Source: a candidate division WOR-3 bacterium (GTDB taxonomy: Bacteria; Hydrothermota; Tepidihabitantia; Tepidihabitantales; Tepidihabitantaceae). From it: a stretch of 64,000 nucleotides of DNA. The stretch is from the NCBI GenBank assembly GCA_965649225.1, contig CBFGJX010000008.1, positions 21,512-85,511 on the forward strand. The letters run 5' to 3'. The notes beneath the pieces are model-generated. The model searched no databases, was not told the origin of the DNA, and worked only from the letters and a program-made list of their open reading frames with translations. Numbering within the stretch: the first letter of the stretch is position 1; every line of letters starts with the position of its first letter. Shown here in pieces: positions 8,496-38,272 of this stretch. Position numbers and translations under genes: made by a program.

Positions 8496-10004
8496 ATGAA
8501 GCAGTGGCTGACTGTTCTGGTGTTGGTGTGGGCCGGACTGGTGTCCGGGCGCGAGTGGCTGGCCCGACTTGACGGGCCAGAGCCCGGGACCGGGGTTGTC
8601 TTTGCGGCTGACGGCTGGAGCCTGGTCGTGGCCGGGGATGATGAACTGTCCCGGCGGGAAAGCGGGATGGTGGTGCTCGAACCGTGGGACGAACGGGCCG
8701 ATTACCTGTACGTTTTCTGCGACAACGAAGCTGTCCGCACTGCGGCGGCAGCCTGCGGTCGCGTGCTGACCGGGGATAGCAACGGACTGGTGCTGGCAAC
8801 CGACACGGCGGGGATAGTGGCGCTCAACCGTCTGCCGGTCCAGTTGTGCGGCATCGGGCGGACCGAGCGTCGGCTGCCCGGGAATGGGGAAAGCACCCTC
8901 AACCCGGCGGTGGTGCCGGACAGTCTGGTCTGGCGGCTGGTCGGCCGGGTAAGTGCCGATTCAGTCGGCGGGACGATTCAGCGGCTGTGGGATTTCCGAG
9001 TCCGTTACAGTGATACCGATTCCTGCCGGCGGGCAATGGACTGGGTGCGGCAGCGGTTGCAGGAGCATGGCTGTGACAGCGTCTGGCTTGATACCTTTCG
9101 CCGTGAGTGGGCGCCGAACGTGGTCGGTTTGAAACGCGGGACAATCAATCCGGACAGGTACTATGTTGTTTGTGCCCATGCCGACGCGACGTCGGAGTCT
9201 CCGCGAATCTATTCGCCCGGTTGTGAGGATAACGGTTCGGGTGTTGCCGCAGTGCTGGAGCTGGCCCGGGTGCTGGCCGATGCCACGGTCGAAAACAGTC
9301 TGCTTTACTGCGTGTTCGCAGGTGAAGAGCAGGGGCTGGTGGGTTCGGATTCACTGGCCCGTCGGGCGCGTGACCGTGGTGATTCAATCCGGCTGGCCAT
9401 CAACTTCGACATGATTTCCTACGGCCGGGCCGGTCGCGACAGCATCGTCATCTACGGTGCACGCAACCCGCCTAACTCGGAGGCGTTTGTGGCGTTTTTC
9501 CGGGCGCAGGCCGATACCTTTTCCAGTCTCAAACACTATGCGACAATCGAGAACACGCCGGCGGCGCGGTCTGACCATTACAGTTTCTGGAAGTATGGTT
9601 TTCCGGCAATCCGGGGCGGCTTTCATGACCGCACGCCGCTTTACCATACCACCGGTGACACCATCGGCCCGCTTTATTACGAACAATGCGGCACCAACAA
9701 CATTCCGATGGAGACCGAGCTGGTCAAAGCGCTGGTGGCGACGGTCGCTCGACTGGTCGGCACCGGGCTGCCGGTGGGAGTTGCGGCCGATCGGCCGGAA
9801 AGGACTGTCCGGCCCGGACTGCCGGCACTGGTTTCGGGTCAGCTGCTGCTGGCCGGCGACCGGCCGGCAATGCTCTGTGATAGGAGCGGGCGGCGGGTGC
9901 AGGTTGTCCGGCCGGGGGTAAACGATATCAGTCGGCTGCCGGCGGGAGTGTATTTTGCCTGCGGAATCGGTCTCCGGCCGCGGCGGGTGATTCTCTGGCA
10001 TTGA
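8496..10004 (+). CDS. M28-family Zn aminopeptidase, secreted, with a short C-terminal sorting-type tail
   Basis: Signal peptide MKQWLTVLVLVWAGLVSG. The M28 motifs …CAHADATSES…GCEDNGSGVAAVLELARV…FAGEEQGLVGS…NFDMIS…DHYSFW… The tail is …DRSGRRVQVVRPG…LPAGVYFACGIGLRPRRVILWH. The in-frame upstream GTG at 8460 overlaps trmFO, so ATG 8496 is preferred. Confidence 0.8.
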   Translation: MKQWLTVLVLVWAGLVSGREWLARLDGPEPGTGVVFAADGWSLVVAGDDELSRRESGMVVLEPWDERADYLYVFCDNEAVRTAAAACGRVLTGDSNGLVLATDTAGIVALNRLPVQLCGIGRTERRLPGNGESTLNPAVVPDSLVWRLVGRVSADSVGGTIQRLWDFRVRYSDTDSCRRAMDWVRQRLQEHGCDSVWLDTFRREWAPNVVGLKRGTINPDRYYVVCAHADATSESPRIYSPGCEDNGSGVAAVLELARVLADATVENSLLYCVFAGEEQGLVGSDSLARRARDRGDSIRLAINFDMISYGRAGRDSIVIYGARNPPNSEAFVAFFRAQADTFSSLKHYATIENTPAARSDHYSFWKYGFPAIRGGFHDRTPLYHTTGDTIGPLYYEQCGTNNIPMETELVKALVATVARLVGTGLPVGVAADRPERTVRPGLPALVSGQLLLAGDRPAMLCDRSGRRVQVVRPGVNDISRLPAGVYFACGIGLRPRRVILWH

Positions 10005-10080
10005 TGGTCCGACGACTTGACAACCGCAGTGGTCACACCAAGATTAATCAGGGCTGTCCGCAGCCCGGACAGGAGCAGCA

Positions 10081-10359
10081 ATGGATGAACAGCCAAAAGA
10101 AGAACGTACCAGGACCGAGGAGTTTGAGGTCGATGCCGGTGAGCTGGTTGATCGGGTAAAAGCACTGGTCGAGGCCGGCAATGTCCGGCGGTTGGTGATA
10201 AGGATGCCCGATGGCCGGGTGCTTTTCGAAGTGCCGCTGACCGCTGGCGTGGCGGTGGGCGGTGCGGTGGTTCTTCTGGCGCCGGTGCTGGCGGCACTGG
10301 GAGCACTGGCGGCAGTAGTGGCCCGCGTCAAGGTTCAGGTGGTGCGGGCAGTAGAGTAG
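10081..10359 (+). CDS. DUF4342-like small protein
   Basis: EEFEVDAGELVDRVKALVEAGNVRRLVIRMPDGRVLFEVPLTAGVAVGGAVVLLAPVLAALGA matches the remembered DUF4342 pattern. Confidence 0.5.
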   Translation: MDEQPKEERTRTEEFEVDAGELVDRVKALVEAGNVRRLVIRMPDGRVLFEVPLTAGVAVGGAVVLLAPVLAALGALAAVVARVKVQVVRAVE

Positions 10360-11886: not shown

Positions 11887-11888
11887 CG

Positions 11889-13721: not shown

Positions 13722-13727
13722 GGCCGG

Positions 13728-14401: not shown

Positions 14402-17392
14402 ATGAAGAGAACGGTGTTGCTGTGTGTGCTGGCGGTTTGTCTGGCGTTGGCCGCCAACCCGCTGAAACCGTCAGCCCGCGGCAGTTTTCTGCCGGCGGCA
14501 GGTCCCGACGACTTCCGGGTCGCATTCTGGGGCGAGCAGAGGTTTGATCCGCGTGATGGGCTGCCGTCGCTGGATGTGCCGACCATCAGTGCCTATCCGG
14601 GCGACGGTACCGGCTGGTATCTGGTGCAGTTTTCCGGCCCGGTGTTTGGCTATCAGATTGATGCCCTGCGCCGAACCGGTGCCTATTTTCACGGGTTTCA
14701 CTCGCGGTCGGTGGCGTTTGTCAAGGCCAGCGCGGCTCAGATGGAGGCGGTCAACGCATTGCCGTTTGTGCGCTGGACCGGCATCTACCAGCCGGGGTTG
14801 AAGTTCTGGCCGGGCACACTTGCCGATGAGGGCTATGGCCGGGTGGCGGTGATTCTGTTCTACCCCGAGGACATTGTTGCCGCCGAGGCGGCGATTCGCG
14901 CCCTCGGTGTTACCGTCGTCGCGACCGGTGTGTCCGAAGCGTGCAAGGCGATCGACGTCGAGTGCAGCCGCGCCGATGTCGCCCGACTGGCCGCACTGCC
15001 GTTTGTCCAGTCGCTGGAAGAGTGGCATCCGGCCGAGGCCGAGAATGAACAGTGTCAGTGGGTCGCCCAGACCTGGGCCCAGAATCAGCGCCGGGTGTGG
15101 GAGCAGGGACTCTACGGCGAGGGTGAAATCCTCGGCTATTCCGACGGCCAGCTGGACCATGCCCACTATGCGATGTACGACCCGACAGTGACGATTGCTG
15201 ACACCGGCGAGTTTCCGACCCACCGCAAGATTGTCGCACTGAAGAAATATCCGCCGGCCCGGCTGGGTTCGAGTGATTCGCACGGCAGTCACGTTGGCGG
15301 GACAATCGCCGGCGACGATTCCATCAACGGCGGCACCAATCTCAACGACGGCCATGCCAAGCGGGCCCGGCTGGTCCAGCTTTCGCCGATTCCACAGCCG
15401 ACCGGCAATGACTTCACCGAGCCGCTGAACATCATCTCCAACTATCTGCGTAATCCGGAGCTGCGGCCGCATACGATGTCGCACTCGTGGTGGACGCTGA
15501 CGATGGGACAGTACACCAATGCCGCAGCGACTTTCGACCAGTTCTCCTGGCGGAACAAGGACATCCAGCAGATCAAGTCCTGCGGTAATCAGGGCCAGTC
15601 GAGCCAGTACCGAATCACCGAACCGGGCAATGCCAAGTCAATCATTTCGGCGGCCTCGCTGCAGAACGGTACCAGCTCGACCGTGCTGTCGAGCTATTCA
15701 TCGCGCGGGCCGGCCCCGGACGGCCGGATCAAACCGGACATCAGTGTGCCGGGCGAAAACATCATGTCGGTGCAGTACCGGACGACCAATTCCTACACTG
15801 CGATGAGCGGCACCTCGATGGCGGCACCGGCCATCAACGGCAACATCGGGCTGCTGCGCAACTATCTGCGCAAGGGTTACTATCCGTCCGGTGCCGCCAA
15901 CCCGGCGGACACGTTCGGCTATGTCTCGGCGGCGCTTTTGAAGGCGATGGTGCTGGTTTCGGCCGACCCGAACATTGGTTCCTATGTGATACCTTCGGAG
16001 TACGTCGGCTGGGGCCGGATTGACCTCGACTCGGTGCTTTATTTCTCGACCCCGACCCCGGACTACCGCAAACTGCTGCTCGATGACGATACGCTCGGGC
16101 TGGCAACCGGCGAGTATGTCGAATACCAGTTGCAGGTGACCGATTCAATCCCGCTGCGCATTGCCGTGGTCTGGACCGACACGGCGGCGGCTGCCGGCGC
16201 GAATCCGGCGCTGATCAACGACCTGAACTGTCTGCTGACCGGACCGGACGCAAGCTTCTACAAGGGTAATCTCTACAGCGGCGGACAGTCGGTGCGTAAT
16301 CCGGCCGGTGCGTACGATGCGCTGAATCCGAACGAGCTGTTTCGCGTCAACCGGCCGATGCCCGGTACCTGGACGCTGCGGGTGGCGGCGCAGAATGTCG
16401 TTACCACGCGTCAGCCTTTTGCAGTGGTGGCAACCGGTGCGTTCTCGACCACCCGGCATGATGTCGGGGTCAGTCGGATTATTGCGCCGGTGGGCCGGAT
16501 TGACACCGGCACGGTGGTCACGCCGGCCTGCTCGGTGTACAATTACGGCACCGAGACCGAGAGCTATTCGGTGCGACTGCGCATCGCCGCTGACTACGAT
16601 ACGGCGGTGGCGGTTACCGCCCATCCGGCGGGCAGCGCACTGCGGGTAGAGTTTCCGCAGTGGACCGCAACCGCTCTGGGCAGCTTCGCGGTGAAGTGCT
16701 CGACAATGCTCGATGTTGACTTCAACCCGGCCAACGATTTTATTGCCGATTCGTTCACGGTACGCCGGCCGGTTCACGATGTCGGCGTGATTGCCGTGCT
16801 GGCACCGGGCGACACGGTCGAGGCCGGCACGGTGATTGTGCCGCGGGCACTGGTGCGCAATTTCGGCTCCTATCCGGAAAGCTTCCGGGTGCAGCTGACT
16901 ATCGGGCGCTGGGGCTCTTTCGACAGTCTCAGCCTCGAGCCGGGTGCAGTCGATACGGCGGTGTTCGAGGAGTGGATTGCCGGGCCGATTGGCAGTCTGG
17001 CACTGGCCGGCTACACGATGCTTGCCGGCGATGCCGACCCGGCCAACGATACGGTGCGGGGTACGGTTGTTGTTATCCCCGGTACCGGCGTCGAAGAGCT
17101 GCGGGGCGTGCCGCGCGAGTTCACTCTCGACCGGGCGGCTCCGACGCCGTTCGCCGGCCGGACGTCGGTGCGCTACGGTCTGCCGTATCCGACACCAGTG
17201 ACCGTGGCGGTGTATAACACTGCCGGCCGGCAGGTGCGGCGACTGTTTTCGGGCAGCGCCGAAGCCGGATATCACCGTGCCGAATGGGACGGCCGGGACG
17301 ATTCCGGTCAGCCGGTCGGGCCGGGGATTTACCTCTGCCGGATAGCGGCCGGCGGATTCCGGGCAATGACCAAGCTGGTCAAGCTTGACTAG
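14402..17392 (+). CDS. Subtilisin-like serine protease (peptidase S8) with two CARDB-like modules and a type-A T9SS-like C-terminal sorting domain
   Basis: ATG at 14402 after AGAGAGGAAT. Signal peptide MKRTVLLCVLAVCLALA. The catalytic triad reads DTGEF (Asp), HGSHVGGTIAG (His) and GTSMAAP (Ser). CARDB-like repeats are HDVGVSRIIAPVG… and HDVGVIAVLAPGD…. The C-terminus is …PTPFAGRTSVRYGLPYPTPVTVAVYNTAGRQVRRLFSG…WDGRDDSGQPVGPGIYLCRIAAGGF…TKLVKLD. Confidence 0.85.
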   Translation: MKRTVLLCVLAVCLALAANPLKPSARGSFLPAAGPDDFRVAFWGEQRFDPRDGLPSLDVPTISAYPGDGTGWYLVQFSGPVFGYQIDALRRTGAYFHGFHSRSVAFVKASAAQMEAVNALPFVRWTGIYQPGLKFWPGTLADEGYGRVAVILFYPEDIVAAEAAIRALGVTVVATGVSEACKAIDVECSRADVARLAALPFVQSLEEWHPAEAENEQCQWVAQTWAQNQRRVWEQGLYGEGEILGYSDGQLDHAHYAMYDPTVTIADTGEFPTHRKIVALKKYPPARLGSSDSHGSHVGGTIAGDDSINGGTNLNDGHAKRARLVQLSPIPQPTGNDFTEPLNIISNYLRNPELRPHTMSHSWWTLTMGQYTNAAATFDQFSWRNKDIQQIKSCGNQGQSSQYRITEPGNAKSIISAASLQNGTSSTVLSSYSSRGPAPDGRIKPDISVPGENIMSVQYRTTNSYTAMSGTSMAAPAINGNIGLLRNYLRKGYYPSGAANPADTFGYVSAALLKAMVLVSADPNIGSYVIPSEYVGWGRIDLDSVLYFSTPTPDYRKLLLDDDTLGLATGEYVEYQLQVTDSIPLRIAVVWTDTAAAAGANPALINDLNCLLTGPDASFYKGNLYSGGQSVRNPAGAYDALNPNELFRVNRPMPGTWTLRVAAQNVVTTRQPFAVVATGAFSTTRHDVGVSRIIAPVGRIDTGTVVTPACSVYNYGTETESYSVRLRIAADYDTAVAVTAHPAGSALRVEFPQWTATALGSFAVKCSTMLDVDFNPANDFIADSFTVRRPVHDVGVIAVLAPGDTVEAGTVIVPRALVRNFGSYPESFRVQLTIGRWGSFDSLSLEPGAVDTAVFEEWIAGPIGSLALAGYTMLAGDADPANDTVRGTVVVIPGTGVEELRGVPREFTLDRAAPTPFAGRTSVRYGLPYPTPVTVAVYNTAGRQVRRLFSGSAEAGYHRAEWDGRDDSGQPVGPGIYLCRIAAGGFRAMTKLVKLD

Positions 17393-19173: not shown

Positions 19174-19501
19174 ACCGAGCCCGGCCGGGTTGCAGTTGAA
19201 GCTAAATCCGGCATTTGGGGAGTAATGTCTTAACGCATTGACCACGCGTCAGTTGTCAAACGGCAATCCAACATCCCCCTCTCGTTCCCCCGGCGGTGAT
19301 GACGCAAGCTTGTGCCGGTGCCGCTGAACCGGTTTCAGTCAGACCTGTCAGCAAGCCGGACCGTGCGGCAGCCACTGGTTGCCGGATTGAGGTCGCCGGT
19401 GGGGCGGGACAAAAGCGATGATTGGTATCCGCGGCAGGCGAGTGTCCGAAACGGCGGTTGAGAGTCGGGCCGGACCGGTAATGGTGTATCAGGTCCGGCT
19501 G

Positions 19502-22500
19502 ATGCGTCTCGTGCGGCTCCTGCCACTGGCTGCGGCTGTCGCGCTCGGCGGCTGGTTGAACGAGGAACGCATCACCGCGCGCACCAACGCCGCCGACCGC
19601 ACCTCGCCTAACAACGCCCGCTGCCTCGCGGTCGATTCGGCCGGCAACGTCCACGCGGTGTGGTATGGCGAGGTCGGCGGAACACGCCAGATATGGTACT
19701 CACGGCGCGAGGCGGCGACAGGCGAATGGAGCGCAGACACCGCGGTCACTGCCGGCGTGAGGGATGCCGTCTTCCCTTCGGTCTCGGCCGACCCGGCCGG
19801 GAACGTTCACGTCATCTGGCAGGCGAATACGACCATCCCGGCCATCTGCTACAGGATGCGTGCGGTTGCAAGCGGGTGGGGCGCGGTCGAGACGGTCTGG
19901 CGCGGGTCGGGCGCGGCCAGCCCGAGCATCGCCAGTCCGGGCATGAGCGTGGCGCAGGCCGTTTGGATCGCCACTTTCCCGGCGCAGCACCAGAATGTCC
20001 TGTTCGCAGTCCGGGACAGCGCGGGCTGGCGGTCGCCGAGCGTGTTGAGCGAGGACAACGGGAGCGCGCACAGCAACCCGTGCATCGCCGCGGCATCGGA
20101 TACTCACGCAGCAGTCGTGTGGAATCGCGCGCCCACTCCACGCCTGGTGTGTGCCCGGTTGCTCGTGGACCATCAGCCTCAGACGCTGGAAACTCTCAGT
20201 GTCGGCGGGGGGCTGGCAAGCATCAGTGCCGGGCGCGGCGGCGTCTACAGGGCGGTCTGGAGCAAGTCCGGCGGGACAGCAGACTCTCTGCGCATCCGGA
20301 CATGGGCCGGGGGCGGCTGGCAGGCTGTTGCGCGCGTCGAGTGCGCCGGCCGGCAGGCCGGGCCGGCGTCCGTTGCCGACGACGCCGCAGGCCGGCCGAA
20401 CCTGTCGTGGTGCGCGCCCGGGCTGACATCGGTCGCCCAGGTCCATCACGCCGTTGCCGACTCCGCAGGTACGCAGTGGCATGACGCGCAGAGACTCACC
20501 GAGGCGTCAATCGGCCGGGAGAACCCGTCGATCGCGTGCGGGCCGGACGGCAGCATTCAGGTCATCTGGACCGACCAGCGGCACAGCAGCAGCAACACCG
20601 ATGTCTACTTCCGCCGGTGGGAGTTCGTGCGGGATGTGGCAGTGTTGGGATTTGAGGCGCTGGAGGACACCGTGGACTCGGGCGACGTTGTCGTGCCGAG
20701 GGTGAGCGTGGTGAACCTGGGCGATACGGTCGAACGGAACGTCCTGCTGTGGTTTCACGGGCCGGGCGTGAGCGCGGACACGGTGCTGGATACGATTGCC
20801 CGTGGTGACACGGTCGTTGTCCGGTTCGATTCGCTGGCCGGCCGCGTGCGCGGGTGGAACGTTGTTGTCTGTTCGACCCGCATCGAGGGGGACCGCCGGC
20901 GCGGCAACGATGCGGCGCGCGACAGCTTCTTCGTCGCGGTGCGGGATGCGGCGGTGGATTCGATTGTCGCACCGCGCGGGCAGGTGGTCGAGGATTCGGT
21001 CGCGCCGGAGGTGCTGCTCGCCAACCGCGGCAATCTGGCGGCGCGCTGCACCTGCATCGTGAGCATCGCGCGCGATTCCGCAGTTGTCTACGAGGCGGAT
21101 ACGGTGCTGGGTATCGCGCCGGGGTCGAGTGCGCGGATTGTGCTGCCGTACTGGCGAACCGCGCCGGGCGAATACGCGCTGCGCGCATCGGTACGGCTGG
21201 CCGGCGATATGGTGCGGGCCAATGACACGCTCTCGGCGCGGTTTTCGGTGCCGCGGCGCGATGTCGGAGTTGCCGGAATCATCGCGCCGGTCGGACAATT
21301 TGACTCGGGCGCGGCGGTCGAGCCGCAGGTCGTGGTGTTCAACGCCGGTGCGGCAGAAGAGTCTTTCGCCGCGCGACTGTGGATCGGGCAGGGCTGGCTC
21401 GACTCGGCGCGGGTCGAACGGCTTGGACCGGGCGAGAGCCTCGCGGTGCGATTTCGCGAGTGGCGGGCACTCGAACGCGGCGAGAGCGAGGTGCGCTGCT
21501 CGCTCGCGGTGCGGCCCGACCACGAGCCGGGCAACGACACCGCGGCCGGGGCGGTGTTCGTGCGGGTGATTGACGCGGCCGCGCGGTCAATCGAGCTGCC
21601 GCCCGAGGAGGTCGGGTTCGGGACGCTGTCGCCGCTGGTGAGGGTGCAGAACTCCAGCACGCAGGCAGAGTCGGTGCAGTGCCGGTTCGAGATCCGGGCC
21701 GGGGATTCGCTGGTCTGGGCCGATTCGGTCGCGGCCGGGCTGCCGGCCGGGGTTGACAGTACGGTTGAGTTCGGCGCGTGGGAGACGCGCGGCGGCTGGT
21801 ATCGCGCGGTCCTGCGGGTGAGCGCGGGTGGAGACATGCGGCCGGAGAATGATTCAGTCACGGTAGTGTTTCGCGTGCACCCGATTGATGCCGCGGCGCG
21901 CGCGATTGTTGCCCCGCGCGGGGTGATTCGCGCGGGCCTGGTCGCGCCGGCAGTGCGCATTGCCAATCTCGGGGACGAGACCGAGGACATCCGGCTTCGG
22001 CTCGGCATCGGTGCGGGCGGCGGCACGGGCTACGACGAGTCGACGCTGGTGACGGTCGAGCCGGGCCGGGAGACGACCGCAATGCTGCCGGCGTGGCGCG
22101 CGACGTGCGGCGAGTATTCGGTTTTCGCGCGCGTGGCCCTGCGCGGTGACATCAACCCGGGCAATGACCAGTTGGCGGGAAACGTCGTCGTGGAGTCGAC
22201 CGTGGTGTTGCGCTGGACCCGGCTGGCCGACATTCCGGCCGGGCCGCGCGGATTGCCGGTGCTGGACGGCGGCGCGCTGGCCGGGGCCGGCGGCAGGGTC
22301 TATGCACTCAAGGGCGGGTCGAGCGAGCTGTGGGCTTACTCACCACCAGAGAGCGTGTGGACCGCGCAGGCCGCGCTGGGCGAGAGCTGCCGGACCGGTG
22401 GCGGTGCCGCGCTGGCCTGGGACGGCGAGCGCTGGCTGTACGCGATTCGCAGCCGGCAGAGCGGTGAGCTGTGGCGGCTTGACCTTGCGGCCGATTCGTG

Positions 22501-23317
22501 GCAGGCGTGCCCGTCCCTGCCGCCCCATGTGCGGCGGTTCGGACACGGTGCGACGCTCGCATGCTGGCGTGGCGATACGCTCAAGCTTTTTGCGCTGCCG
22601 GGCGCGGGTTCGCTGGAGTTTTTCTGTTACCTGCCGGGACTGCGGCGCTGGCACGCGCGCCGGCCGCTGCCGGCCGGGCCGACCGGACGCCGTCCGCGCC
22701 GCGGCAGTTGTCTTGTCAGTGCCGGCAACCGGCTGTTCTGTCTGAAGGGTGGCACCGGCGAATTCTACGAGTATTTTCCCCGCCGCGATTCCTGGGTTGA
22801 ACGTTCCGGAATGCCGCGCATCAGCCGTGCCGGTCGGACCCGAAGCGGCGGTGACGGTGCCGCGGCGGGATGGGATGGCGGTGACCTGATTTACTTTACC
22901 AAGGGCCGCGGTCTGGAGTTCTGGCGTTATCGCATCAGTGCCGATACCTGGGAACAGCTTGAGGACGTGCCGCGGTCGGTGCCGCGCCGGGCCTGCCGCA
23001 AGGGTACCGGTCTGACCGTGCTGGGTGGCAACGTGTATCTGTTGCGCGGCAACGCAACGCGCGAGTTCTGGTGCTATGACCCGGACGCAAACAACCTCGG
23101 CACTCTGGCGGTCTTGCCGCCAGCCGGGCATGAGCCGTCGCGGGTCGGGCTGCGGCGCGGGCCGCTGGCGCACAACGGGAGCGATGCTGCCGGCTGGCGC
23201 TGGTACGACGCAGCCGGCAGACGGGTTTTGCCGGGCCGGCGGGCCGGGGTGGTGTTTGCGGTTGGGCCGGGTGGAGCAGTGAAGCTGGTTCTGGTGCGGC
23301 CACCGGCCGGGAGATAA
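19502..23317 (+). CDS. Giant secreted multidomain protein. It combines a sialidase/BNR-like β-propeller, 6× CARDB-like Ig modules and a Kelch-like β-propeller.
   Basis: Signal peptide MRLVRLLPLAAAVALGGW (ATG at 19502; the ORF-track start at 19418 is an extension). N-terminal blades resemble …D.AGN.H.VW…, e.g. AVDSAGNVHAVWYGE, SADPAGNVHVIWQAN, CGPDGSIQVIWTDQ. CARDB-like repeats include DVGVAGIIAPVGQFDSGAAVEPQVVVFNAG…. The C-terminal repeats follow G…Y…GG…ELW.Y.P..D.W (Kelch-like). The tail is …YDAAGRRVLPG..AGVVFAV…KLVLV…. Confidence 0.75.
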   Translation: MRLVRLLPLAAAVALGGWLNEERITARTNAADRTSPNNARCLAVDSAGNVHAVWYGEVGGTRQIWYSRREAATGEWSADTAVTAGVRDAVFPSVSADPAGNVHVIWQANTTIPAICYRMRAVASGWGAVETVWRGSGAASPSIASPGMSVAQAVWIATFPAQHQNVLFAVRDSAGWRSPSVLSEDNGSAHSNPCIAAASDTHAAVVWNRAPTPRLVCARLLVDHQPQTLETLSVGGGLASISAGRGGVYRAVWSKSGGTADSLRIRTWAGGGWQAVARVECAGRQAGPASVADDAAGRPNLSWCAPGLTSVAQVHHAVADSAGTQWHDAQRLTEASIGRENPSIACGPDGSIQVIWTDQRHSSSNTDVYFRRWEFVRDVAVLGFEALEDTVDSGDVVVPRVSVVNLGDTVERNVLLWFHGPGVSADTVLDTIARGDTVVVRFDSLAGRVRGWNVVVCSTRIEGDRRRGNDAARDSFFVAVRDAAVDSIVAPRGQVVEDSVAPEVLLANRGNLAARCTCIVSIARDSAVVYEADTVLGIAPGSSARIVLPYWRTAPGEYALRASVRLAGDMVRANDTLSARFSVPRRDVGVAGIIAPVGQFDSGAAVEPQVVVFNAGAAEESFAARLWIGQGWLDSARVERLGPGESLAVRFREWRALERGESEVRCSLAVRPDHEPGNDTAAGAVFVRVIDAAARSIELPPEEVGFGTLSPLVRVQNSSTQAESVQCRFEIRAGDSLVWADSVAAGLPAGVDSTVEFGAWETRGGWYRAVLRVSAGGDMRPENDSVTVVFRVHPIDAAARAIVAPRGVIRAGLVAPAVRIANLGDETEDIRLRLGIGAGGGTGYDESTLVTVEPGRETTAMLPAWRATCGEYSVFARVALRGDINPGNDQLAGNVVVESTVVLRWTRLADIPAGPRGLPVLDGGALAGAGGRVYALKGGSSELWAYSPPESVWTAQAALGESCRTGGGAALAWDGERWLYAIRSRQSGELWRLDLAADSWQACPSLPPHVRRFGHGATLACWRGDTLKLFALPGAGSLEFFCYLPGLRRWHARRPLPAGPTGRRPRRGSCLVSAGNRLFCLKGGTGEFYEYFPRRDSWVERSGMPRISRAGRTRSGGDGAAAGWDGGDLIYFTKGRGLEFWRYRISADTWEQLEDVPRSVPRRACRKGTGLTVLGGNVYLLRGNATREFWCYDPDANNLGTLAVLPPAGHEPSRVGLRRGPLAHNGSDAAGWRWYDAAGRRVLPGRRAGVVFAVGPGGAVKLVLVRPPAGR

Positions 23318-23321
23318 AGCA

Positions 23322-23351
23322 GGCAGGGGATGGAGGAATGCATCCCCTGCC
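23322..23351 (+). terminator. Hairpin (11-bp stem GGCAGGGGATG/CATCCCCTGCC) 5 nt after the giant gene's stop
   Basis: A perfect inverted repeat. No U-tract. Confidence 0.35.
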
Positions 23352-23459
23352 TGAGGCAACGCGGAGTCTTGCCCCCCTGTGCGTGCTGAGCGACTTGCGG
23401 ATTGAGTCTGCCCGGCGGCGTTTTGCTGGTAGAAACTGCCAGTTAAGATACCGCAAAGA

Positions 23460-23488
23460 CCGGCGGGGTGTGGTCAGCACCCCGCCGG
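23460..23488 (-). terminator. Hairpin (11-bp stem CCGGCGGGGTG/CACCCCGCCGG) about 18 nt downstream of the M14 gene stop, on the minus strand
   Basis: A perfect inverted repeat. On the minus strand it is followed by GTCTTTGCGGTATCTT, which is T-rich. Confidence 0.45.
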
Positions 23489-23505
23489 ATGTGGTAAAGC
23501 TCTGA

Positions 23506-26500
23506 TTAATCCAGTCTTACCGCTTTGACCGTTGTTCGCTGCCCCGCGGCTTCAAGCTGCAGGAAGTAGATGCCCCGGGCAAGGGGTTGGCCGGCAGCGT
23601 CGGTGCCGTCCCAGCGGACAGTGCCGGCGCCGGCCGGCTGGTTGCCGGAAAGCAGTTGTTTCACCATGCGGCCGGAGTTGTCATAGACGGCCAGATTCGC
23701 TATGCCCGGCTGAGGCAGAACATAGCGGATTGAGGCCGGATCGCGCAGCGGGTTGCGGTCGATGCCAAGAACCGGCAGCAGGGTGGGACCGGTCAATGGT
23801 TCGCTGATGGCGGTGGACTGACTGGTGGTGTACCTGATCGCGCGGCCGGGCCCGAGCGGCGCTGCGCCGCGATGATAGGTGCCATCAAACAGGCAGTTGA
23901 TGCCGATGGCGCAGGTCGGGTCTTCGATCCCCACCGTCGCCGAGCCGAAGTCGTTGCCGCCGCGGTACTGCAGGATTATCTCGTTGTCGCGGGTCGGGGT
24001 CTGCACCGTGGTGTCGTAGATGATGAACTGGCCAATGACATAGCTGGTGCGCGGGCTGTACTTGCAGACCGAGTCGTATTCGATGATGAAGCGATGGTTG
24101 GTTGCATCGTGCCAGTACCACACCCCGCGCCCGGCCTGAGGATACAGGTCGTCCCAGAGCAGACAGAGGTTGGCCGGCTGAGCACCGTCGGGCAGACTGA
24201 CATTGGAGTAGCTCGAGCTGGTGGTCGAGCCGGGCGCTATCCAGCCGTTGGAGCAGATGCTGACCTGCGTGAAGCTCTGACCGTAGTAGCGCCAGGGCCC
24301 GAACGCCGGCGGCAGACTGACAACCGCGGTCTGGTCGTCGGAGAGCGTCAACCGGGTGCCGACACCGTTGATTTCCACCCACTCGAACTGGGGCCGCTGG
24401 GCATAGCCCGAATCGACGTCGTCGTAGGCCCAGTAGCGGGCCGGCTGCCGCGGCCCGTCCGGTATCGGGTCAACCGCCCGCAGTTCACCGACGACGATGT
24501 CGAAGGCAAGCGTGTCGGTGTAGCCGGTGCCGGCAACGAAGAGCTGCATCGTAACCGGATATTCGCGCGGCGTGAAGGGCGAGGAGCGGATTTGAAACCG
24601 GTCGGACCAGTTGGTCCGGCTGGAATCGGGCAGGATGGTGCCGTAGCTTGCCTGGGCGTCGATTACCGTGATGAGGGTATCGGGACTGAACAGTGTTGCA
24701 ACGACATTCTGAGCCGGCAGGCGGCCGACGTTGCCGAGGCGGACAGCGAGCTCGGCGGTTTCGCCCGGATCGAGCCGGTTGTTGTTGTTACCGCCGGGCG
24801 GAGAGTCGATGATATATTGCTGCTGGTACACCAGCGCGGCTGAATTGGTGGCAATCGCTTCGACCGCATCGAGGTCAAAGCCGGCAGTGGCGCCGGAGAC
24901 CGCGCCGGAGTCGTCAACAATCTTGATGAAGCGAAAAGCGCTGACGCTGCCGCGGCTGAGGTCGAAGCTGTCGGTGCCGGTGGCCCAGCCAAGGCTGGTC
25001 CAGGGGCCGGCCCAGTCCAGTGCGACTTCGACGCGGTAGCCTTCGGGGTCGGCGTCGTCCTCATACACCGTGAAGTCGCTGCCCGGGCCATTGACCAGAG
25101 TGCGGCCGAAATCGTAGATGGCGAAGCCGCCGCGGCCGAGCGAGAAGCGGCGGCCGTCGCGCGGGCCGAGGGCCCAGTCCGGGGTCGAAACGATCAAAGT
25201 GTCGCTGACCCCGCGGCCGCTGATGAACTGGTGCAAGGCGACGGGCAAAGTGGTGTCGGGCACGAGCGCAACATTGAGGCGGGTAACCGTGTCGGCGGTG
25301 ACCGTGACACCGGTGATGGTCTTGCTGCGATAGCCGTTGGCTTCGAAGACCACGTCATAGGTGCCCGGCCGCAGATAGCGGTGGTAGTCGCCGATGCTGT
25401 CGCAGAAACTGGGAAAATTGATGGGCATCGGCCGGACCCGGGCACGCACCGGCGCGCCGGTGACCGAGTCGGTGACGATGCCGCGGATGCCGCGGTCGAT
25501 GTTGGCCAGTATCATCTTCATCGCGGCGTGCTCGCGTGCGATTATCTGGGCGAGCGACTCGACCGGCGGAGTCTTGTAGATGCAGGTTTCGACGGTCCAG
25601 CCGATGGCGCCGGTAGTGCCGTAGGCGTAGTCCTTGGACGAGCCGTTGATGCGGTACATTCCCCGGTACCCGGGGGCGTTGGGGTAGCCGGTGATGTCGT
25701 GGTAGCGGCCGCCCAGATACCAGAACTCCATCGAGTCGCGCGTGCCGAAGGGCGAGTAGCTCCAGGGCGTGGAGATGAAGTAGGTGCCGCCGTGGCCCGA
25801 CTGCCAGAAGTTGAAGCAGTTGCGCTGCATCAGCCGGAGCTGGACCCGGGTCTCGGGCTGGGTGAAGCCTTCGCGCGCCGAGGTCTCGTACCACCACATG
25901 AAGCCGTAGTCGCGGTTGCAGTCGTAGCCGTTGCGGTTGGTGCGCGCGCCGGCGATGTGGCCGTATGGGTTGGTCGGGCAGAGCACCCAGATTTCCCGGG
26001 TGTTGACCCAGTAGGTGACGTCGGGGTCGACCCCGTAGTTGCGCGCGAGGTAGACCGCGAACTCGAAGGCGGGTTCGGTGGCGCATTTTTCGTCGCCGTG
26101 GATGGCGGCTTCAAACATCAGTTCGGGCTCGTCTTCTTCGAGCTGCGGGTTGTCGGTTATTTTCAGGGCGAAGATGAGGCTGTCGTTGGATGCGAACCCG
26201 AGCGTCTCGAACTTGATGAAGGTCGGGTTGTTCTGCGCCATCAGCAGAAAAGTGTCTTTAATCTGAGTGTAGGTGTGAAACCGGTAGTCGAGCGCGTTCT
26301 TCTCGTAAAAGCCGGTGATGTCGCGCTTGAGTACCGCGACACTCCAGCCGTCGCGCTCGAGCCGGGCGACGCGGTCCTGGGGCACCTCGACGAGCATCCG
26401 GCCGTCCGGTCCCGGGCCGTTGATGATGCAGCCGAGGTCTTCAAGCTCGCGGATGTCCTCGCGGGTACGGACATCGACGGTGACAAGGTCGTAGCGCGGT

Positions 26501-26550
26501 GCGGCCGAAGCCGCGAGCGCCAGGGCGGCAAGGACAAGAACAATTCTCAA
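23506..26550 (-). CDS. M14-family Zn carboxypeptidase with a carboxypeptidase-regulatory-like domain, extra β domains and a type-A T9SS-like C-terminal sorting domain
   Basis: TTG at 26548-50 follows AGGAGG. Signal peptide MRIVLVLAALALAASA. The M14 Zn motif HGDE in …AIHGDEKCATEP…. A CarbopepD_reg-like segment (GIVTDSVTGAPVRARVRP…). The C-terminus is …PASIRYVLPQPGIANLAVYDNSGRMVKQLLSG…WDGTDAAGQPLARGIYFLQLEAAGQRTTVKAVRLD. Confidence 0.75.
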   Translation of the reverse strand: MRIVLVLAALALAASAAPRYDLVTVDVRTREDIRELEDLGCIINGPGPDGRMLVEVPQDRVARLERDGWSVAVLKRDITGFYEKNALDYRFHTYTQIKDTFLLMAQNNPTFIKFETLGFASNDSLIFALKITDNPQLEEDEPELMFEAAIHGDEKCATEPAFEFAVYLARNYGVDPDVTYWVNTREIWVLCPTNPYGHIAGARTNRNGYDCNRDYGFMWWYETSAREGFTQPETRVQLRLMQRNCFNFWQSGHGGTYFISTPWSYSPFGTRDSMEFWYLGGRYHDITGYPNAPGYRGMYRINGSSKDYAYGTTGAIGWTVETCIYKTPPVESLAQIIAREHAAMKMILANIDRGIRGIVTDSVTGAPVRARVRPMPINFPSFCDSIGDYHRYLRPGTYDVVFEANGYRSKTITGVTVTADTVTRLNVALVPDTTLPVALHQFISGRGVSDTLIVSTPDWALGPRDGRRFSLGRGGFAIYDFGRTLVNGPGSDFTVYEDDADPEGYRVEVALDWAGPWTSLGWATGTDSFDLSRGSVSAFRFIKIVDDSGAVSGATAGFDLDAVEAIATNSAALVYQQQYIIDSPPGGNNNNRLDPGETAELAVRLGNVGRLPAQNVVATLFSPDTLITVIDAQASYGTILPDSSRTNWSDRFQIRSSPFTPREYPVTMQLFVAGTGYTDTLAFDIVVGELRAVDPIPDGPRQPARYWAYDDVDSGYAQRPQFEWVEINGVGTRLTLSDDQTAVVSLPPAFGPWRYYGQSFTQVSICSNGWIAPGSTTSSSYSNVSLPDGAQPANLCLLWDDLYPQAGRGVWYWHDATNHRFIIEYDSVCKYSPRTSYVIGQFIIYDTTVQTPTRDNEIILQYRGGNDFGSATVGIEDPTCAIGINCLFDGTYHRGAAPLGPGRAIRYTTSQSTAISEPLTGPTLLPVLGIDRNPLRDPASIRYVLPQPGIANLAVYDNSGRMVKQLLSGNQPAGAGTVRWDGTDAAGQPLARGIYFLQLEAAGQRTTVKAVRLD

Positions 26551-26630
26551 CACAGCCTCCTGAGTTGCTGAAAATGACAGACAGTTGATTTTAAAGTCGG
26601 CCCCGGGCCGGTCAACCCGGCCGGCTGTCA

Positions 26631-27332
26631 TCACATCCGAAACGGCGGTCGTGCCGCGGAGCCGAACCGCAGGCCGGCATCCCAGGACAGCCCGCCCAGG
26701 CCAAAACGCGGCGGCTGACCCCGGCCGGTGTAAACTTCGGGGCCGCCGATTGGAATGAACCAGCCGGCGCGGGTATAGAGCGCAACGTAATGCTCTTCGC
26801 CGTAGCGCAGCCGTCCCATCAGTTCGAGCGCCGGCATGACGCCGACGGTCCAGCCCCAGAAAACATCCCAGATGTCCGGGTCAGCAACAAACAGCGCGCC
26901 GTCTTCGATGGAGTGGGCATAGAGAAACCAGGCGCCGAAACCGACATTGACATGGGGTCGGACCCAGAAGAAATCACGCGGTACCCAGGCGTAACCACAG
27001 TCGAAGCTGCCGCGCAATCCGACCAGTTCGGCCGCCAGCGAGTCGGCCCGCTGGGTGGAGGCGGTGACAGAACCCTCACCACCGAGGGTGATGTTGCCAA
27101 CCGCGCCGGCACGATGGCCGCCCAGCCACCATACCGGCCGGCGCAGGCGGAACGAGTCGTTGCCGCGATAGCGGTCCGGGTCGCGGTTGAGCCGGGAAAG
27201 GGTCTGGTTCAATCCTGATGTTCTGAGCCAGGTGGCACTGATGCCGAAGCCACCATAGCCGGCCAGGGCGGTGCCGGTGAGCAGAAAAAACAGTACAGCC
27301 GGAGTGAGATTCCGGCGGATTTCAGTTGTCAT
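26631..27332 (-). CDS. Putative outer-membrane β-barrel protein (hypothetical), upstream of and co-oriented with the M14 gene
   Basis: ATG at 27332 is preceded by AAGGAGA. Signal peptide MTTEIRRNLTPAVLFFLLTGTALA. Alternating aromatic/Gly-rich β-strand-like segments and a C-terminal …F-R-M aromatic end. The ORF-track N-terminus (to 27665) is spurious. Confidence 0.45.
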   Translation of the reverse strand: MTTEIRRNLTPAVLFFLLTGTALAGYGGFGISATWLRTSGLNQTLSRLNRDPDRYRGNDSFRLRRPVWWLGGHRAGAVGNITLGGEGSVTASTQRADSLAAELVGLRGSFDCGYAWVPRDFFWVRPHVNVGFGAWFLYAHSIEDGALFVADPDIWDVFWGWTVGVMPALELMGRLRYGEEHYVALYTRAGWFIPIGGPEVYTGRGQPPRFGLGGLSWDAGLRFGSAARPPFRM

Positions 27333-27891
27333 CTGATTCTCCTTCGGGCCGGCCCGCACGGCCGACCGGGTTGGTGAAGTCGTATTCAGTGTTGCCAATC
27401 CGGACCGCGTCGCCGCCGATGCCAGCGGGGCGCAGCGAGCGGGAGAGCCCCGGGTCGGTCCAGATTGCCATTGCCCGCCATTGCATCGGCCGAGCCGAGT
27501 CGCTTTCGACCAGGTAGGCCCAGACCACCCGGACGCGGCGGCGCTGACGACGGTTGGCCATTTCCAAAGTTGTGTAGAGCAACCGGTCGAGCGCAATGCG
27601 CAGGGCGGAGTCGGAAAGCCCGGCCGGGACAACGGCCCGAACCGTGAGTCGCTCGATGCTGCCAAGCGGCTGTTCGATTGTTTCGAGCAACCGCCACTGC
27701 GGTCCGGGTTCGGTCGGCTCCGGCGGCACCAGGCCGGGACGCCGGGGGGGCGATATGAGTAACAGTCCGGCGCCGACCGCCGACAGTATCAGAACGAAAA
27801 GCCAGTAACGGCTGCGGCCGCGGCCCCAGCGCATCCGGTCAACAAGCGAGGGCTTTTCGAGCTGGCGTGGCCGGGAGCGCAAAGATATCAT
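27322..27891 (-). CDS. Hypothetical membrane-anchored protein (N-terminal TM helix)
   Basis: YWLFVLILSAVGAGLLLIS is a TM segment. It overlaps the downstream gene start by 11 nt (operonic). No domain is recognised. Confidence 0.4.
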   Translation of the reverse strand: MISLRSRPRQLEKPSLVDRMRWGRGRSRYWLFVLILSAVGAGLLLISPPRRPGLVPPEPTEPGPQWRLLETIEQPLGSIERLTVRAVVPAGLSDSALRIALDRLLYTTLEMANRRQRRRVRVVWAYLVESDSARPMQWRAMAIWTDPGLSRSLRPAGIGGDAVRIGNTEYDFTNPVGRAGRPEGESDDN

Positions 27892-35146: not shown

Positions 35147-36697
35147 TTGCTGCTTGTCCTGCTGACGATTCTTACGCAGACGCCGACTGTGCCGATGCGC
35201 TGCGCGACGCCGCTGTTCGAGAGCCTGAAGGCCGGCGGGTTGCCGCCGGCGCCGAAGCCCCGTCCGGCCGGCGAACGACTGCGCGTGGGCGATTCGCGCG
35301 TGATGTGGCTGCAGAACATGAGCGTGATGCCGCCGGTTCAGTTTCAGGCCAGTCTGACCTGTCGCGCGGTCGGCCCGCACTGCTACGTGATGGTCGAGGA
35401 CTCGGCATGGAACGCCGGCCAGGTTGATTCAGCCGACGTCGCGCGCATCGTCGAACGGTTCGATTTCTCCAGCCCGCGCGACAGCACGAAGGGCGTGTGG
35501 GGGCACAACACTTCGGTGCTGGGGATGCCGCCCGACGCCATCGACAACGACTCGGCCATCTACCTGCTCTACTACGACGTCGGCTCTTTCCACGGCTACT
35601 CTTTCGACGGGTTCTGGCAGTACTTCGACCAGTACTACGATACGACCGCGATGCGGCTGTGGGGCTACCATTCCAACGAGGTCGAGTGCGTGTACCTTGA
35701 CTGCTGGCCCAACAATCCGGCCGGCGATTACCGCATCGCCATTGTCGCGCACGAGTTCGGCCACATGATTCACTGGAACTATGACCCGGCCGAGTCGCTC
35801 TGGGTGGTCGAGGGCAACTGTGAGCTGGCGATGTGGCTGTACGGCACGCCCGACCCGGTGTCTTCCTTCCCGTCCAACCCGGACAATGACCTGACGAGCT
35901 GGACTGGGGCTTGGGCCGATTACATCAAGACCTACCTGTTTTTCCTCTACCTTTACGAGCAGTATGGCGGCCGGGTTGGTCTGGACCTGATTCACAATGT
36001 CATTGCCTCGCCGTTTGTCAGCATCGAGGGTATTGACTCGGCCTTCGCTGCAACCGGGCGGGACGAGCGGTTTACCGATGTCTTCGATAGCTGGGTGCTG
36101 GCCAACCGCATCAACGACACATCTTTCGCCGGCGGCCGGTACGGCTACTACGGTGAGCGCGTGCCGCGGTTCGGGGTTGCCGGTTACCATTTCACCTTCC
36201 CGGTAGCACGCAGCGGCGACCTGAACCGCTGGGCCGGCGAGTACATTCTCTTTCAGGGTGGGACCGGGCTTGCCGCGACTTTTGATGCCGCCGACAACGC
36301 CGATTTCCGGTTGTTTGTTGTCGGGCTGGACACGGTGAGACGGCGGCTGTTTCTGGACACGATTACGCTCGACTCGGCGGGCCGGGCCGACATCAGCGTG
36401 CCGGGGTTTGGCACGGACTGGCAGTCGGTATATCTCGTGCCGGTAAACCACACGCTTTCAGGGCGGCGGTCGTACAGCTACACCGCGAACGCTTCCGGTC
36501 TCGCCGAAGCAACGTCGGCCGGGCGTGGCCGTCTGTCTGTGCCAACGGTCTGTCGGGCAGGAGATTTGCGGCCGGGACTTGCCGACCGCCTGTTCGCTGC
36601 CGATGGACGCGTGATCCGGTCGCCCGCAGAACTCAAACCCGGAGTCTATTGGCTCAAGGCCGGCGAGGAGATTCGCCGGGTCGTGCTGGTGCCCTAG
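35147..36697 (+). CDS. Secreted HEXXH gluzincin metallopeptidase with a short class-B C-terminal sorting-type tail
   Basis: TTG at 35147 after AGGAGG (the alternative in-frame TTG at 35093 has no Shine-Dalgarno sequence). The zincin motif is AIVAHEFGHMIHWNYDP…E. The tail is …FAADGRVIRSPAELKPGVYWLKAGEEIRRVVLVP. Confidence 0.65.
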   Translation: MLLVLLTILTQTPTVPMRCATPLFESLKAGGLPPAPKPRPAGERLRVGDSRVMWLQNMSVMPPVQFQASLTCRAVGPHCYVMVEDSAWNAGQVDSADVARIVERFDFSSPRDSTKGVWGHNTSVLGMPPDAIDNDSAIYLLYYDVGSFHGYSFDGFWQYFDQYYDTTAMRLWGYHSNEVECVYLDCWPNNPAGDYRIAIVAHEFGHMIHWNYDPAESLWVVEGNCELAMWLYGTPDPVSSFPSNPDNDLTSWTGAWADYIKTYLFFLYLYEQYGGRVGLDLIHNVIASPFVSIEGIDSAFAATGRDERFTDVFDSWVLANRINDTSFAGGRYGYYGERVPRFGVAGYHFTFPVARSGDLNRWAGEYILFQGGTGLAATFDAADNADFRLFVVGLDTVRRRLFLDTITLDSAGRADISVPGFGTDWQSVYLVPVNHTLSGRRSYSYTANASGLAEATSAGRGRLSVPTVCRAGDLRPGLADRLFAADGRVIRSPAELKPGVYWLKAGEEIRRVVLVP

Positions 36698-36718
36698 ATC
36701 GCTGACAATGGAGGCTCT

Positions 36719-38272
36719 ATGACACGCATCGTGATTCTGAGTGCAATGCTCTGTGCCGCTGCCGCCGCGCAAACCGGTGTGGTCGACACCGTCGGTGGCA
36801 CGACGTTTGACAACCAGAACACCGGACCGGCCCTGCAGTGGATAATCAATGACCCGCATAACGGCATCCATGTGACCTGGCTTTACAGCGCGCTGGCGCG
36901 CGGATCGAACTGGCCTGACCGGACGATGAAGTACAACTATCTGGACCGCGCGACCGGCGAGTGGAACTGGATGGATCCGAATGATTACATGCTGTCGGGC
37001 CTTAACTCCCAGAACCGGCGCACCGGGTACGGAACGATGGAAATTGACCCGACCGATGGTGCAGCGTTGATTGCGGCACACTACAGCTTGGGCGGGATGC
37101 CACCGCAGTGGTGCCCGGTCGTGGCGCGGGACGTCGCTCCAGGGGGTGGAATCTTCGACTGGTGCGTTGGCGAGCCGAACTTGGTGAATCACTTCCTGCC
37201 CGTAGTGGCGGTCTCGCCGGGCGGCATCATCCACCTGCTGCACATTCAGTTTGCCACTTCGGACAATCTGTTCTACTCACGCTCGACCAGCTGGTGTAAC
37301 TGGGACGGACCGCAAGGCTGGCAGCAGTCAGGCGCGTACGGCCACAATCTGTGCGCGTCGCACCAATCCGACGCCGTGGTCGCATCTTGGCTCCGTGGTT
37401 CGGGTAGTGAAGCGGCCCTGTTCGTGCGAATGTCGACCGACGCGGGCGCGAGCTGGGCCATACCCACCGAACTCGTGCCGCCGAGCGTATACGGCGGCGA
37501 TACGGTCACCGCCTGCGGCCAGGGCGCGAATGTACTGTTTGACCGCAATGACGACTGGCTGCTGGCGACCGTGCTGGTGCCAGTGGTGGCCGAGACCGCA
37601 CGCAGCAACCCGGCCGAGATATGGGTGTTCAAATCGGCCGGGGCAAGCTGGCACCGGGTGCGCCGGGCCGGCGCACGGACGCCGGCAGGGTCTTTGGGGT
37701 CGAACGCGACATTCTGCGGCCGGCCTTCGCTTGGGCAGAATCCGGTGACCGGGCGATTCTGGATCACTTGGGAAGAGTTCGACTCACTCGACGTTGAGCC
37801 GAGCACCGGACTGTTGCGAGCCGAGGTCTGGTGCGCATGGTCGGACGACGGAGCTGCCTGGTCAGAGCCGGTTCGGCTGACGTCGCCTGACGGCACCTCA
37901 AAGCGGTTCCCGGTTCTGGCGCGTGACTGCACGGACGATTCGCTGGCGGTGTTCTACGTCCAGGACCTCATTGCCGGATTCAACTCCGATTCGGTCGGGG
38001 CAGTGTCGAATAACCCGGTTTGCGTCTGGCGGGGCGCGCTCGCGGGTATCGCCGAGGCTGCCAGAAGCGGGCCGCACATCCGTCTGGCCGGGCACGGTAT
38101 CGCGCGCGCCGGTGTGTCGCTGACAGTTGCCGGCCGGGCAAGGCTGCTCGGGCCGGATGGCCGCGTCGCGGTCGCAGGCCGGGGCGGGCGCGTTGCGACG
38201 GCCGGACTGAGAGCCGGCGTTTACTGGCTTGATGACGGGGTCGCGCGCCGCCGGTTTGTTATCCTGCGCTGA
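36719..38272 (+). CDS. Secreted BNR/Asp-box sialidase-like β-propeller protein with a class-B C-terminal tail
   Basis: Signal peptide MTRIVILSAMLCAAAAAQ. Asp-box-like STDAGASW and SDDGAAWS. Blades similar to the N-terminus of the giant protein (…DPHNGIHVTWLY…). The tail is …LLGPDGRVAVAGRGGRVATAGLRAGVYWLDDGVARRRFVILR. Confidence 0.65.
   Translation: MTRIVILSAMLCAAAAAQTGVVDTVGGTTFDNQNTGPALQWIINDPHNGIHVTWLYSALARGSNWPDRTMKYNYLDRATGEWNWMDPNDYMLSGLNSQNRRTGYGTMEIDPTDGAALIAAHYSLGGMPPQWCPVVARDVAPGGGIFDWCVGEPNLVNHFLPVVAVSPGGIIHLLHIQFATSDNLFYSRSTSWCNWDGPQGWQQSGAYGHNLCASHQSDAVVASWLRGSGSEAALFVRMSTDAGASWAIPTELVPPSVYGGDTVTACGQGANVLFDRNDDWLLATVLVPVVAETARSNPAEIWVFKSAGASWHRVRRAGARTPAGSLGSNATFCGRPSLGQNPVTGRFWITWEEFDSLDVEPSTGLLRAEVWCAWSDDGAAWSEPVRLTSPDGTSKRFPVLARDCTDDSLAVFYVQDLIAGFNSDSVGAVSNNPVCVWRGALAGIAEAARSGPHIRLAGHGIARAGVSLTVAGRARLLGPDGRVAVAGRGGRVATAGLRAGVYWLDDGVARRRFVILR

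Follow-up and report, generated by a model that had tools for sequence, protein, structure and literature searches.

Six secreted proteins encoded in a 64-kb stretch of chromosome from a candidate division WOR-3 bacterium (64,000 nucleotides of contig CBFGJX010000008.1, called the window here) end in C-terminal tails of two lengths. They are an M28 aminopeptidase, an S8 subtilase, a giant protein with BNR-like, CARDB-repeat and Kelch regions, an M14 carboxypeptidase, an HEXXH zincin and a BNR/sialidase-like β-propeller protein, and in each the tail ends 0-5 residues before the stop codon. A first-pass annotation of this DNA had set the long tails of S8 and M14 apart from the short tails of the other four and suggested either two sorting or anchoring fates or, for the short tails, a previously unclassified minimal C-terminal domain (CTD). 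Our results favor the second suggestion. Judged from their sequences, the short tails are a lineage-specific compact variant of the known type A sorting domain used in type IX secretion (the T9SS) and not a separate signal. They replace canonical CTDs on orthologous cargo, align with them at the profile level with hhalign probabilities of 93-97%, include one member (M28) with specific fold matches, and stay below the thresholds of the curated models. We consider it probable that the two long tails and three of the short ones (M28, HEXXH and BNR) are all versions of the type A CTD, that the short ones form a compact WOR-3 subfamily, and that their cargo takes a T9SS route.

The three short tails differ among themselves in the distance between their GRxV and GVY motifs. 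The M28 tail (9825-10001, + strand; PALVSGQLLL...DRSGRRV...PGVNDISRLPAGVYF...RRVILWH) has 59 aa and a 15-residue spacer, and the BNR tail (38096-38269, + strand; GIARAG...LLGPDGRVAVAGRGGRVATAGLRAGVYW...RRRFVILR) shares this spacing and lacks the PG.ND motif. The HEXXH tail (36542-36694, + strand; PTVCRAG...FAADGRVIRSPAELKPGVYWLKAGEEIRRVVLVP) is the shortest, with 51 aa and a spacer of 8 residues, so the short tails are not uniform. None contains the WDG segment found in the long tails and none matches PF13860, as the first-pass annotation had noted for the segment. We compared the tails with two hidden Markov models (HMMs) that contain no window sequences, one built from 129 unrelated metagenomic tails and run against the window's 910 six-frame segments, the other from 46 external tails of HEXXH orthologues. 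The 129-tail HMM detected M28 (1.8e-15), BNR (2.8e-5) and HEXXH (4.6e-4), and the 46-tail HMM detected BNR (4e-13), HEXXH (1.8e-11) and M28 (2.2e-8); against the latter, the best of 2,310 shuffled controls reached only E=0.027. Because these matches are significant with HMMs built without window sequences, we regard the M28, BNR and HEXXH tails as one true family. The proposal that a single short tail is conserved among four proteins is confirmed for these three, but not for the giant, whose match is not significant. The spacing is 15 residues in two of the tails and 8 in the third.

The decisive evidence on how the short tails relate to canonical CTDs comes from the HEXXH protein. Its orthologues were found in 79 genomes; identity to it is 86% for the orthologue in one WOR-3 metagenome-assembled genome (MAG) and ranges over 57-65% in a dozen other MAGs of WOR-3. 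The WOR-3 orthologues end in the pattern '...PTVVRAG...S.DGR.V......PGVYW.....RK.VV.R'. At the same position, the orthologues of Eisenbacteria, Fermentibacteria, Krumholzibacteria, Coatesbacteria, Bacteroidota and others carry canonical CTDs of the form PNPF...D..GR.V...WDG...GVY. Across 91 database homologues the GRxV-GVY spacing is stepped, with values of about 7-8, 14-15, 23 and about 30 residues, and PF18962 or PF13860 is on record only in the distant ones, the close ones having no recorded Pfam match. At the level of sequence, this replacement demonstrates that short tails and canonical CTDs are interchangeable on orthologous HEXXH cargo.

Profile-profile alignment with hhalign points to the same relationship. 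The short and 15-spacer tails together matched canonical CTDs with a probability of 96.2% (E 2e-9), and the 15-spacer family did so with 97.0% (E 9.3e-11). The shortest class, represented by 22 hand-curated sequences, none of them from the window, reached 93.5% (E 2.2e-7); the only gap in that alignment, of 22 residues, falls exactly between GR.V and GVY. When an HMM is iterated over WOR-3 loci starting from short tails, it draws in WDG-type tails, the window's S8 tail included, and the 129-tail HMM weakly detects the long tails as two segments, one on either side of the WDG insert (M14 1.6e-3, S8 6.5e-3). TIGR04183, the curated type A model, gave matches at E<=10 in 10 of 24 WOR-3 tails (best 8.5e-6) and scores of 13-25.5 bits in eight of ten compact-tail cargo proteins, against a cut-off of 23 bits that only 3 of 54 compact family members approximately reached. 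The first-pass annotation had reasoned that comparable scores of both tails on this model would point to simple divergence; single sequences do not score comparably, but the profiles do connect. Both flavors also share a G-[IVL]-x-E motif 10-20 residues upstream of the tail, seen as GVEE in S8 (around 17080-17100), AISE in M14, GLAE in HEXXH and GIAE in BNR (around 38050-38070), with the variant GVAAD in M28. This motif, which is enriched across the wider compact family (59/110 versus 9/69 in a control segment), could serve as a linker or be a site of processing.

Published structures give a context for what the compact tails keep. Lauber et al. (PMC10994853) describe CTDs as 7-stranded β-sandwiches and report that the motifs conserved in type A determine the fold and not contacts with the translocon. 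In their account SprA/PorV offers a plastic, mainly hydrophobic pocket, a Lys close to the CTD C-terminus is almost invariant and functionally important, and type A and type B CTDs use different carriers. The model of the M28 tail is a predicted 7-strand β-sandwich whose best fold matches are T9SS CTDs and PorU. The AF2 model of the HEXXH tail (pLDDT 74.5) has 5 strands, and a Foldseek search of the PDB with it gave no significant match. Going by these models, the 15-spacer type has good evidence for a CTD fold, which the shortest type may or may not share. In the compact family, the near-C-terminal position that corresponds to the almost invariant Lys is basic in 129 of 129 sequences, with 96 K (74%) and 33 R (26%); in the window it is Arg in the M28, BNR and HEXXH tails and Lys in the long ones. 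The different endings reported earlier, 'RR.V[IL]' versus 'K.VKLD', are thus real in this genome, but they can be read as a conservative substitution at a known position, since that position is basic in every family member and most often Lys.

Taken together, the compact tails resemble the type A CTD (TIGR04183 Por_Secre_tail; PF18962) in standing at the extreme C-terminus of signal-peptide-bearing hydrolases, in retaining the motif order yD..GR.V / L.pGVYf / basic-x-V-V, and in their profile-profile homology, interchangeability among orthologues and, for M28, best fold matches. Solved type A examples include the CTDs of RgpB, PorZ, PorU and mirolase, as well as those of NucA, FspA, RemA and RemZ bound to SprA-PorV. 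The compact tails differ in length (51-59 aa versus about 70-85), in a central GR.V-GVY stretch that shrinks from about 23-30 residues to 15 (M28, BNR) or 7-8 (HEXXH), and in having PT[VI]VRG in place of the N-terminal PNPF strand. In addition, the window's short tails score below every curated threshold, carry Arg for Lys in this genome, and belong to a phylum with no described T9SS.

The long tails of S8 (17141-17389, + strand) and M14 (23509-23754, - strand) are long canonical type A CTDs, FlgD_ig-like and with the WDG insert. On TIGR04183, S8 scores 28.6 bits as a whole protein and 33.3 as a tail alone, and M14 scores 25.4 and 30.7; on PF13860 FlgD_ig (cut-off 27 bits) the corresponding values are 40.8 and 45.5 for S8 and 44.2 and 49.1 for M14. 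Both tails exceed both cut-offs, in agreement with their initial assignment as T9SS type A/FlgD-Ig-like, and they are detected at 1.3e-21 (S8) and 7.4e-19 (M14) by an HMM that was built from the canonical CTDs of non-WOR-3 orthologues. The cut-offs of PF18962 and CHU_C (27 bits) were not reached by either. PF13860 is used as a C-terminal sorting tail in FCB-related candidate phyla, and the window's long tails pass this model with the WDG insert lying between the GR.V and GVY strands, whereas the short tails are wholly without that segment and without a PF13860 match. Flagellar hook-capping FlgD itself was rejected as an identity for these tails: only its Ig-like part matches, at 26-40 bits against equivalog cut-offs of 230-383, and Pfam/NCBIfam annotation of the open reading frames (ORFs) in the window revealed no flagellar genes and hence no flagellar context. 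The type B CTD (TIGR04131; CHU_C, PF13585) is likewise a C-terminal β-sandwich signal of the T9SS and provides the known example of two CTD classes served by different carriers. It was also rejected, as CHU_C gives only weak matches to the long tails (13-18 bits) and none to the short ones, and TIGR04131 is not among the NCBIfam families returned for the window proteins and tails.

The compact tail extends well beyond the window. A full HMMER search of 1.84 billion representatives of 50% identity clusters with the compact-tail HMM yielded 2,222 cluster representatives at E<=1e-3; the statistics on position, motifs and spacing given here rest on the best 150 of them. About 130 of these 150 are single matches, and 128 of 132 single-domain matches end <=2 residues from the C-terminus of the protein. 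The cargo is diverse and of all sizes, with many YVTN β-propeller proteins. The family consensus is PTVVRG.L.L...LLD.sGRKV..L.PG.NDV..LAPGVYFVR...RKVVv.R, and the GRxV-GVY spacing is exactly 15 residues in 124 of 130 members. About 20 of the best 150 are false positives that arise from internal 'YD..GR' repeats in giant proteins; in P0093, P0095, P0096, P0098 and others, the profile matches 5-20 internal, YD-repeat-like stretches through 'YD..GR.V'. A genome-wide census of these tails must therefore demand C-terminal position. A metagenome scan with two peptide patterns returned at least 464 confirmed matches, and 548 kb of metagenomic loci hold 139 ORFs with a compact tail and 20 with a canonical one, both kinds occurring together in 14 of 78 loci. 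Several WOR-3 genomes also carry both flavors in the same loci, and WOR-3 loci typically show clusters of tail-bearing genes. Word-index searches of a 5.8-billion-protein database with tails alone returned nothing or one fragment, a domain of about 60 aa being too short for significance there. We conclude that the compact subfamily is very common in WOR-3-like bacteria.

Several observations weigh against assigning these tails to the T9SS. Searched against Pfam and NCBIfam, the four short tails gave zero matches even at E<=10. The uniformity of the 15-residue spacer could reflect selection by a dedicated partner and not simple drift. A search of the window's ORFs with Pfam, and of the Pfam-negative ones with NCBIfam, revealed no T9SS core gene. 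Nor was any recognized in about 770 kb of related WOR-3 and metagenomic loci, by crude, low-power screens for ORFs of >=1,300 or >=1,500 aa, terminal-aromatic outer-membrane proteins and the FGE motif; these screens found no SprA-sized ORF. No paper that we found links WOR-3 with the T9SS, and the two dedicated WOR-3 genome papers are silent on secretion. In the papers retrieved, the T9SS is said to be particular to Bacteroidota or to the FCB superphylum, and in the NCBI taxonomy WOR-3 is a phylum of its own, Caldifarciminota, with a lineage that has no FCB grouping. FlgD_ig-like β-sandwiches occur outside secretion too, and because WOR-3 may lack a T9SS, the tails might be C-terminal Ig-like domains that serve in WOR-3 as surface or substrate-binding modules, or as signals for another route of export or anchoring. 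We find this improbable in light of the strict C-terminal position in 128 of 132 proteins with otherwise unrelated cargo, the signal-peptide-like N-termini of the window proteins, and the best fold matches of M28, which are specifically T9SS CTDs and PorU. Tails that pass TIGR04183 are present in the same window, and the first WOR-3 strain to be cultured is a diderm (PMC12285271).

If the tails are T9SS signals, the two flavors might still be distinct ones, with the compact family served by its own carrier or anchor, such as a PorV paralogue or a PorP-like partner, so that one class of cargo is, for example, surface-attached and the other released. The length classes are indeed discrete, the 15-spacer class is uniform and has its own motifs (PT[VI]VRG, PG.ND[VI]), and at the basic position the window's three confirmed short tails differ from the long ones. 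The side-by-side occurrence of both classes in metagenomic loci and WOR-3 genomes would fit as well, and the carrier difference between type A and type B CTDs offers a precedent (PMC10994853). However, HEXXH orthologues carry spacings of 7-8, 14-15, 23 and about 30 residues, which shows that tail class is not tied to cargo identity; profile searches link the classes, the upstream G-[IVL]-x-E is common to both, the compact family as a whole is mostly Lys, and no type B signal is seen. With several tail classes inside one orthologous family and profiles that join the classes, the idea of two sorting or anchoring fates is unsupported, and we judge distinct signals to be unlikely. We give almost no credence to a third explanation, in which the short tails look alike by chance or through composition, their C-termini being Arg/Gly/Val-rich and the genome 64% G+C. 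The giant's tail, which fails both HMMs, and the matches of the tail HMM to internal 'YD..GR' repeats of unrelated giant proteins are what such an effect could produce. Yet M28, BNR and HEXXH score between 1e-15 and 5e-4 against foreign-only HMMs, compared with E=0.027 for the best of the shuffled tails, cytoplasmic controls reach <=2.6% in hhalign, and the tails are conserved in orthologues with 57-86% overall identity. Chance resemblance is thus refuted for these three tails and possible only for the giant's.

The tail of the giant (23153-23299, + strand; WYDAAGRRV...AGVVFAV...VKLVLVR), which is followed by 5 extra residues, is possibly a degenerate copy of the compact CTD. It is not significant with either test HMM (E=2.2 with the 129-tail HMM, 2.6 bits with the 46-tail HMM). 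By hhalign it matches the shortest class at 70% and the 15-spacer family at 84%, while ten cytoplasmic C-termini reach <=2.6%. A metagenome scan for orthologues of the giant found none. In the closest relative, locus L001 encodes a CARDB-repeat and Kelch paralogue with 28% identity to the giant (1773-4835, + strand). This paralogue ends in a divergent but recognizable CTD with a 23-residue spacer and an 89% hhalign probability to canonical CTDs.

Some candidates for secretion components came up during the search. A PorU-like candidate in locus L152 (3-3293, - strand) was rejected, as it is a gingipain-like C25 cargo protease, with matches to the catalytic domain of RgpB (2.7e-10) and to the prodomain of Kgp (7.3e-6). 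The locus is metagenomic and was fetched through a compact-tail gene, and the C-terminus of the peptidase is cut by the contig end. In the window, a lipoprotein with TPR and OmpA_C regions (41692-43584, - strand), in which a lipobox is followed by an AYFNTFYNA motif, lies within a few kb of the gene for the HEXXH cargo, an arrangement conserved across WOR-3 genomes. Its orthologues occur in L002 (11720-13810), L005 (5266-7365), L008 (10746-12851), L012 (12748-14928) and L013 (14935-17280). The protein scores 87.6 bits on PorE (cut-off 600) and 82.6 bits on PorW/SprE (cut-off 250), and in the PDB it matches only generic Pal/OmpA/TPR chains; by its sequence it might be a peptidoglycan-anchoring accessory or unrelated. 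No PorP/SprF-like gene was identified beside the tail genes. Directly upstream of the M14 gene, and overlapping it by 4 bp, is an ORF (26634-27665, - strand; real start probably near 27330) whose product has a signal peptide, many aromatic residues and the look of a β-barrel outer-membrane protein, with no Pfam, NCBIfam or PDB sequence match.

All six tail-bearing ORFs are present where the first-pass annotation had placed them, and all six proteins have a hydrophobic, signal-peptide-like N-terminal segment, as judged from hydrophobicity alone in a Kyte-Doolittle scan and not by a dedicated predictor. The catalytic labels they had been given are supported by Pfam for M28, S8, M14 and the CARDB/Kelch regions, and by lesser matches for HEXXH and BNR. 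The M28 aminopeptidase (8496-10004, + strand; Peptidase_M28 1.1e-34) begins with the signal peptide MKQWLTVLVLVWAGLVSG and ends in its compact CTD. The S8 subtilase (14402-17392, + strand; Peptidase_S8 1.4e-28; signal peptide MKRTVLLCVLAVCLALAA) is encoded by an ORF that opens at 14264, with M47 (14402) as the probable start. The giant (19418-23317, + strand) matches Kelch_3, Kelch_6 and CARDB and probably starts near 19502 (MRLVRLLPLAAAVALGG). The M14 carboxypeptidase (23506-26634, - strand) combines Peptidase_M14 (2.1e-23) with CarboxypepD_reg (3e-11) and probably starts near 26553 (VLRIVLVLAALALAASAAP). The BNR/sialidase-like β-propeller protein (36719-38272, + strand; signal peptide MTRIVILSAMLCAAAAAQ) has a weak BNR_2 match, and a tail-bearing BNR orthologue directly downstream of the HEXXH gene is also found in L001.

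The HEXXH zincin (35147-36697, + strand) is MXAN_6640-like, with a score of 34 bits on NF045524 that lies below the cut-off of 140; its start was taken from the database protein P0002 (516 aa, 100% identical). Most members of its family (P0002-P0092) have no Pfam domain on record. The family is conserved from WOR-3 to Bacteroidota, and a conserved Cys directly follows its signal peptide (P[MI][RH]C[GA]T). From these sequence features it appears to be a widespread, uncharacterized family of secreted metalloproteases.

The six genes had also been described as a secretome island, which their surroundings contradict. They are not contiguous, and between them lie genes for RtcB, UvrC, an ABC-F ATPase, a PAS protein, a PMT-type glycosyltransferase, an ABC-3 permease, an M17 aminopeptidase and pyrimidine synthesis. 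The remainder has the gene content of an ordinary chromosome (TldD/PmbA, pst-phoU-phoBR, UvrB and similar). The G+C content of the window is 61-70%, and its composition shows no break other than at the giant's Ala/Arg/Gly-rich gene; the region of that gene (20000-24000) stands at 0.68-0.70 compared to about 0.64 elsewhere, which fits its Ala/Arg/Gly/Val-rich repeats and not a foreign origin. We therefore rejected a genomic island. Elsewhere in the window, a secreted, porin-like ORF without a family match (48209-49393, + strand) lies directly upstream of pstSCAB-phoU-phoB-phoR (49412-55610) and probably encodes a phosphate-selective porin.

Under the preferred interpretation, in which long and compact tails are versions of one type A CTD, the signal peptide would carry each hydrolase across the inner membrane by Sec export. 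The folded CTD, of either flavor alike, would be presented to a PorV/SprA-type outer-membrane translocon, and the cargo would cross the outer membrane. A PorU-type sortase would probably remove the CTD, leaving the enzyme released or surface-attached. The compact tails keep the motifs that specify the fold and the basic residue near the C-terminus. A more speculative proposal, which we advance with considerable reserve, is that the compact tails are a natural minimal T9SS signal, the 51-aa HEXXH type being predicted to lack two of the seven strands, or that the 15-spacer family is matched to a dedicated WOR-3 carrier. If this were true, T9SS-type secretion with a remodelled signal would extend to a phylum in which it is undescribed.

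The main value of these findings is practical and concerns annotation and the prediction of secretomes. They point to T9SS-type export in a phylum whose secretion is undiscussed in the papers we found. Prediction of T9SS cargo relies on TIGR04183, PF18962 and PF13860, and most cargo of the WOR-3 lineage would be missed in this way. Because the standard models overlook compact tails, recognizing no short tail of the window and scoring only 3 of 54 family members at about the cut-off, the secretomes and degradative capacity of WOR-3 MAGs are likely underestimated. A dedicated compact-tail HMM would recover thousands of proteins, given the 2,222 representatives at 50% identity. Finally, the steps in spacing of about 30, 23, 15 and 7-8 residues constitute a natural deletion series that shows which parts of the CTD are dispensable. 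This series bears on the minimal export signal and agrees with the view that the conserved motifs specify fold over contacts (PMC10994853).

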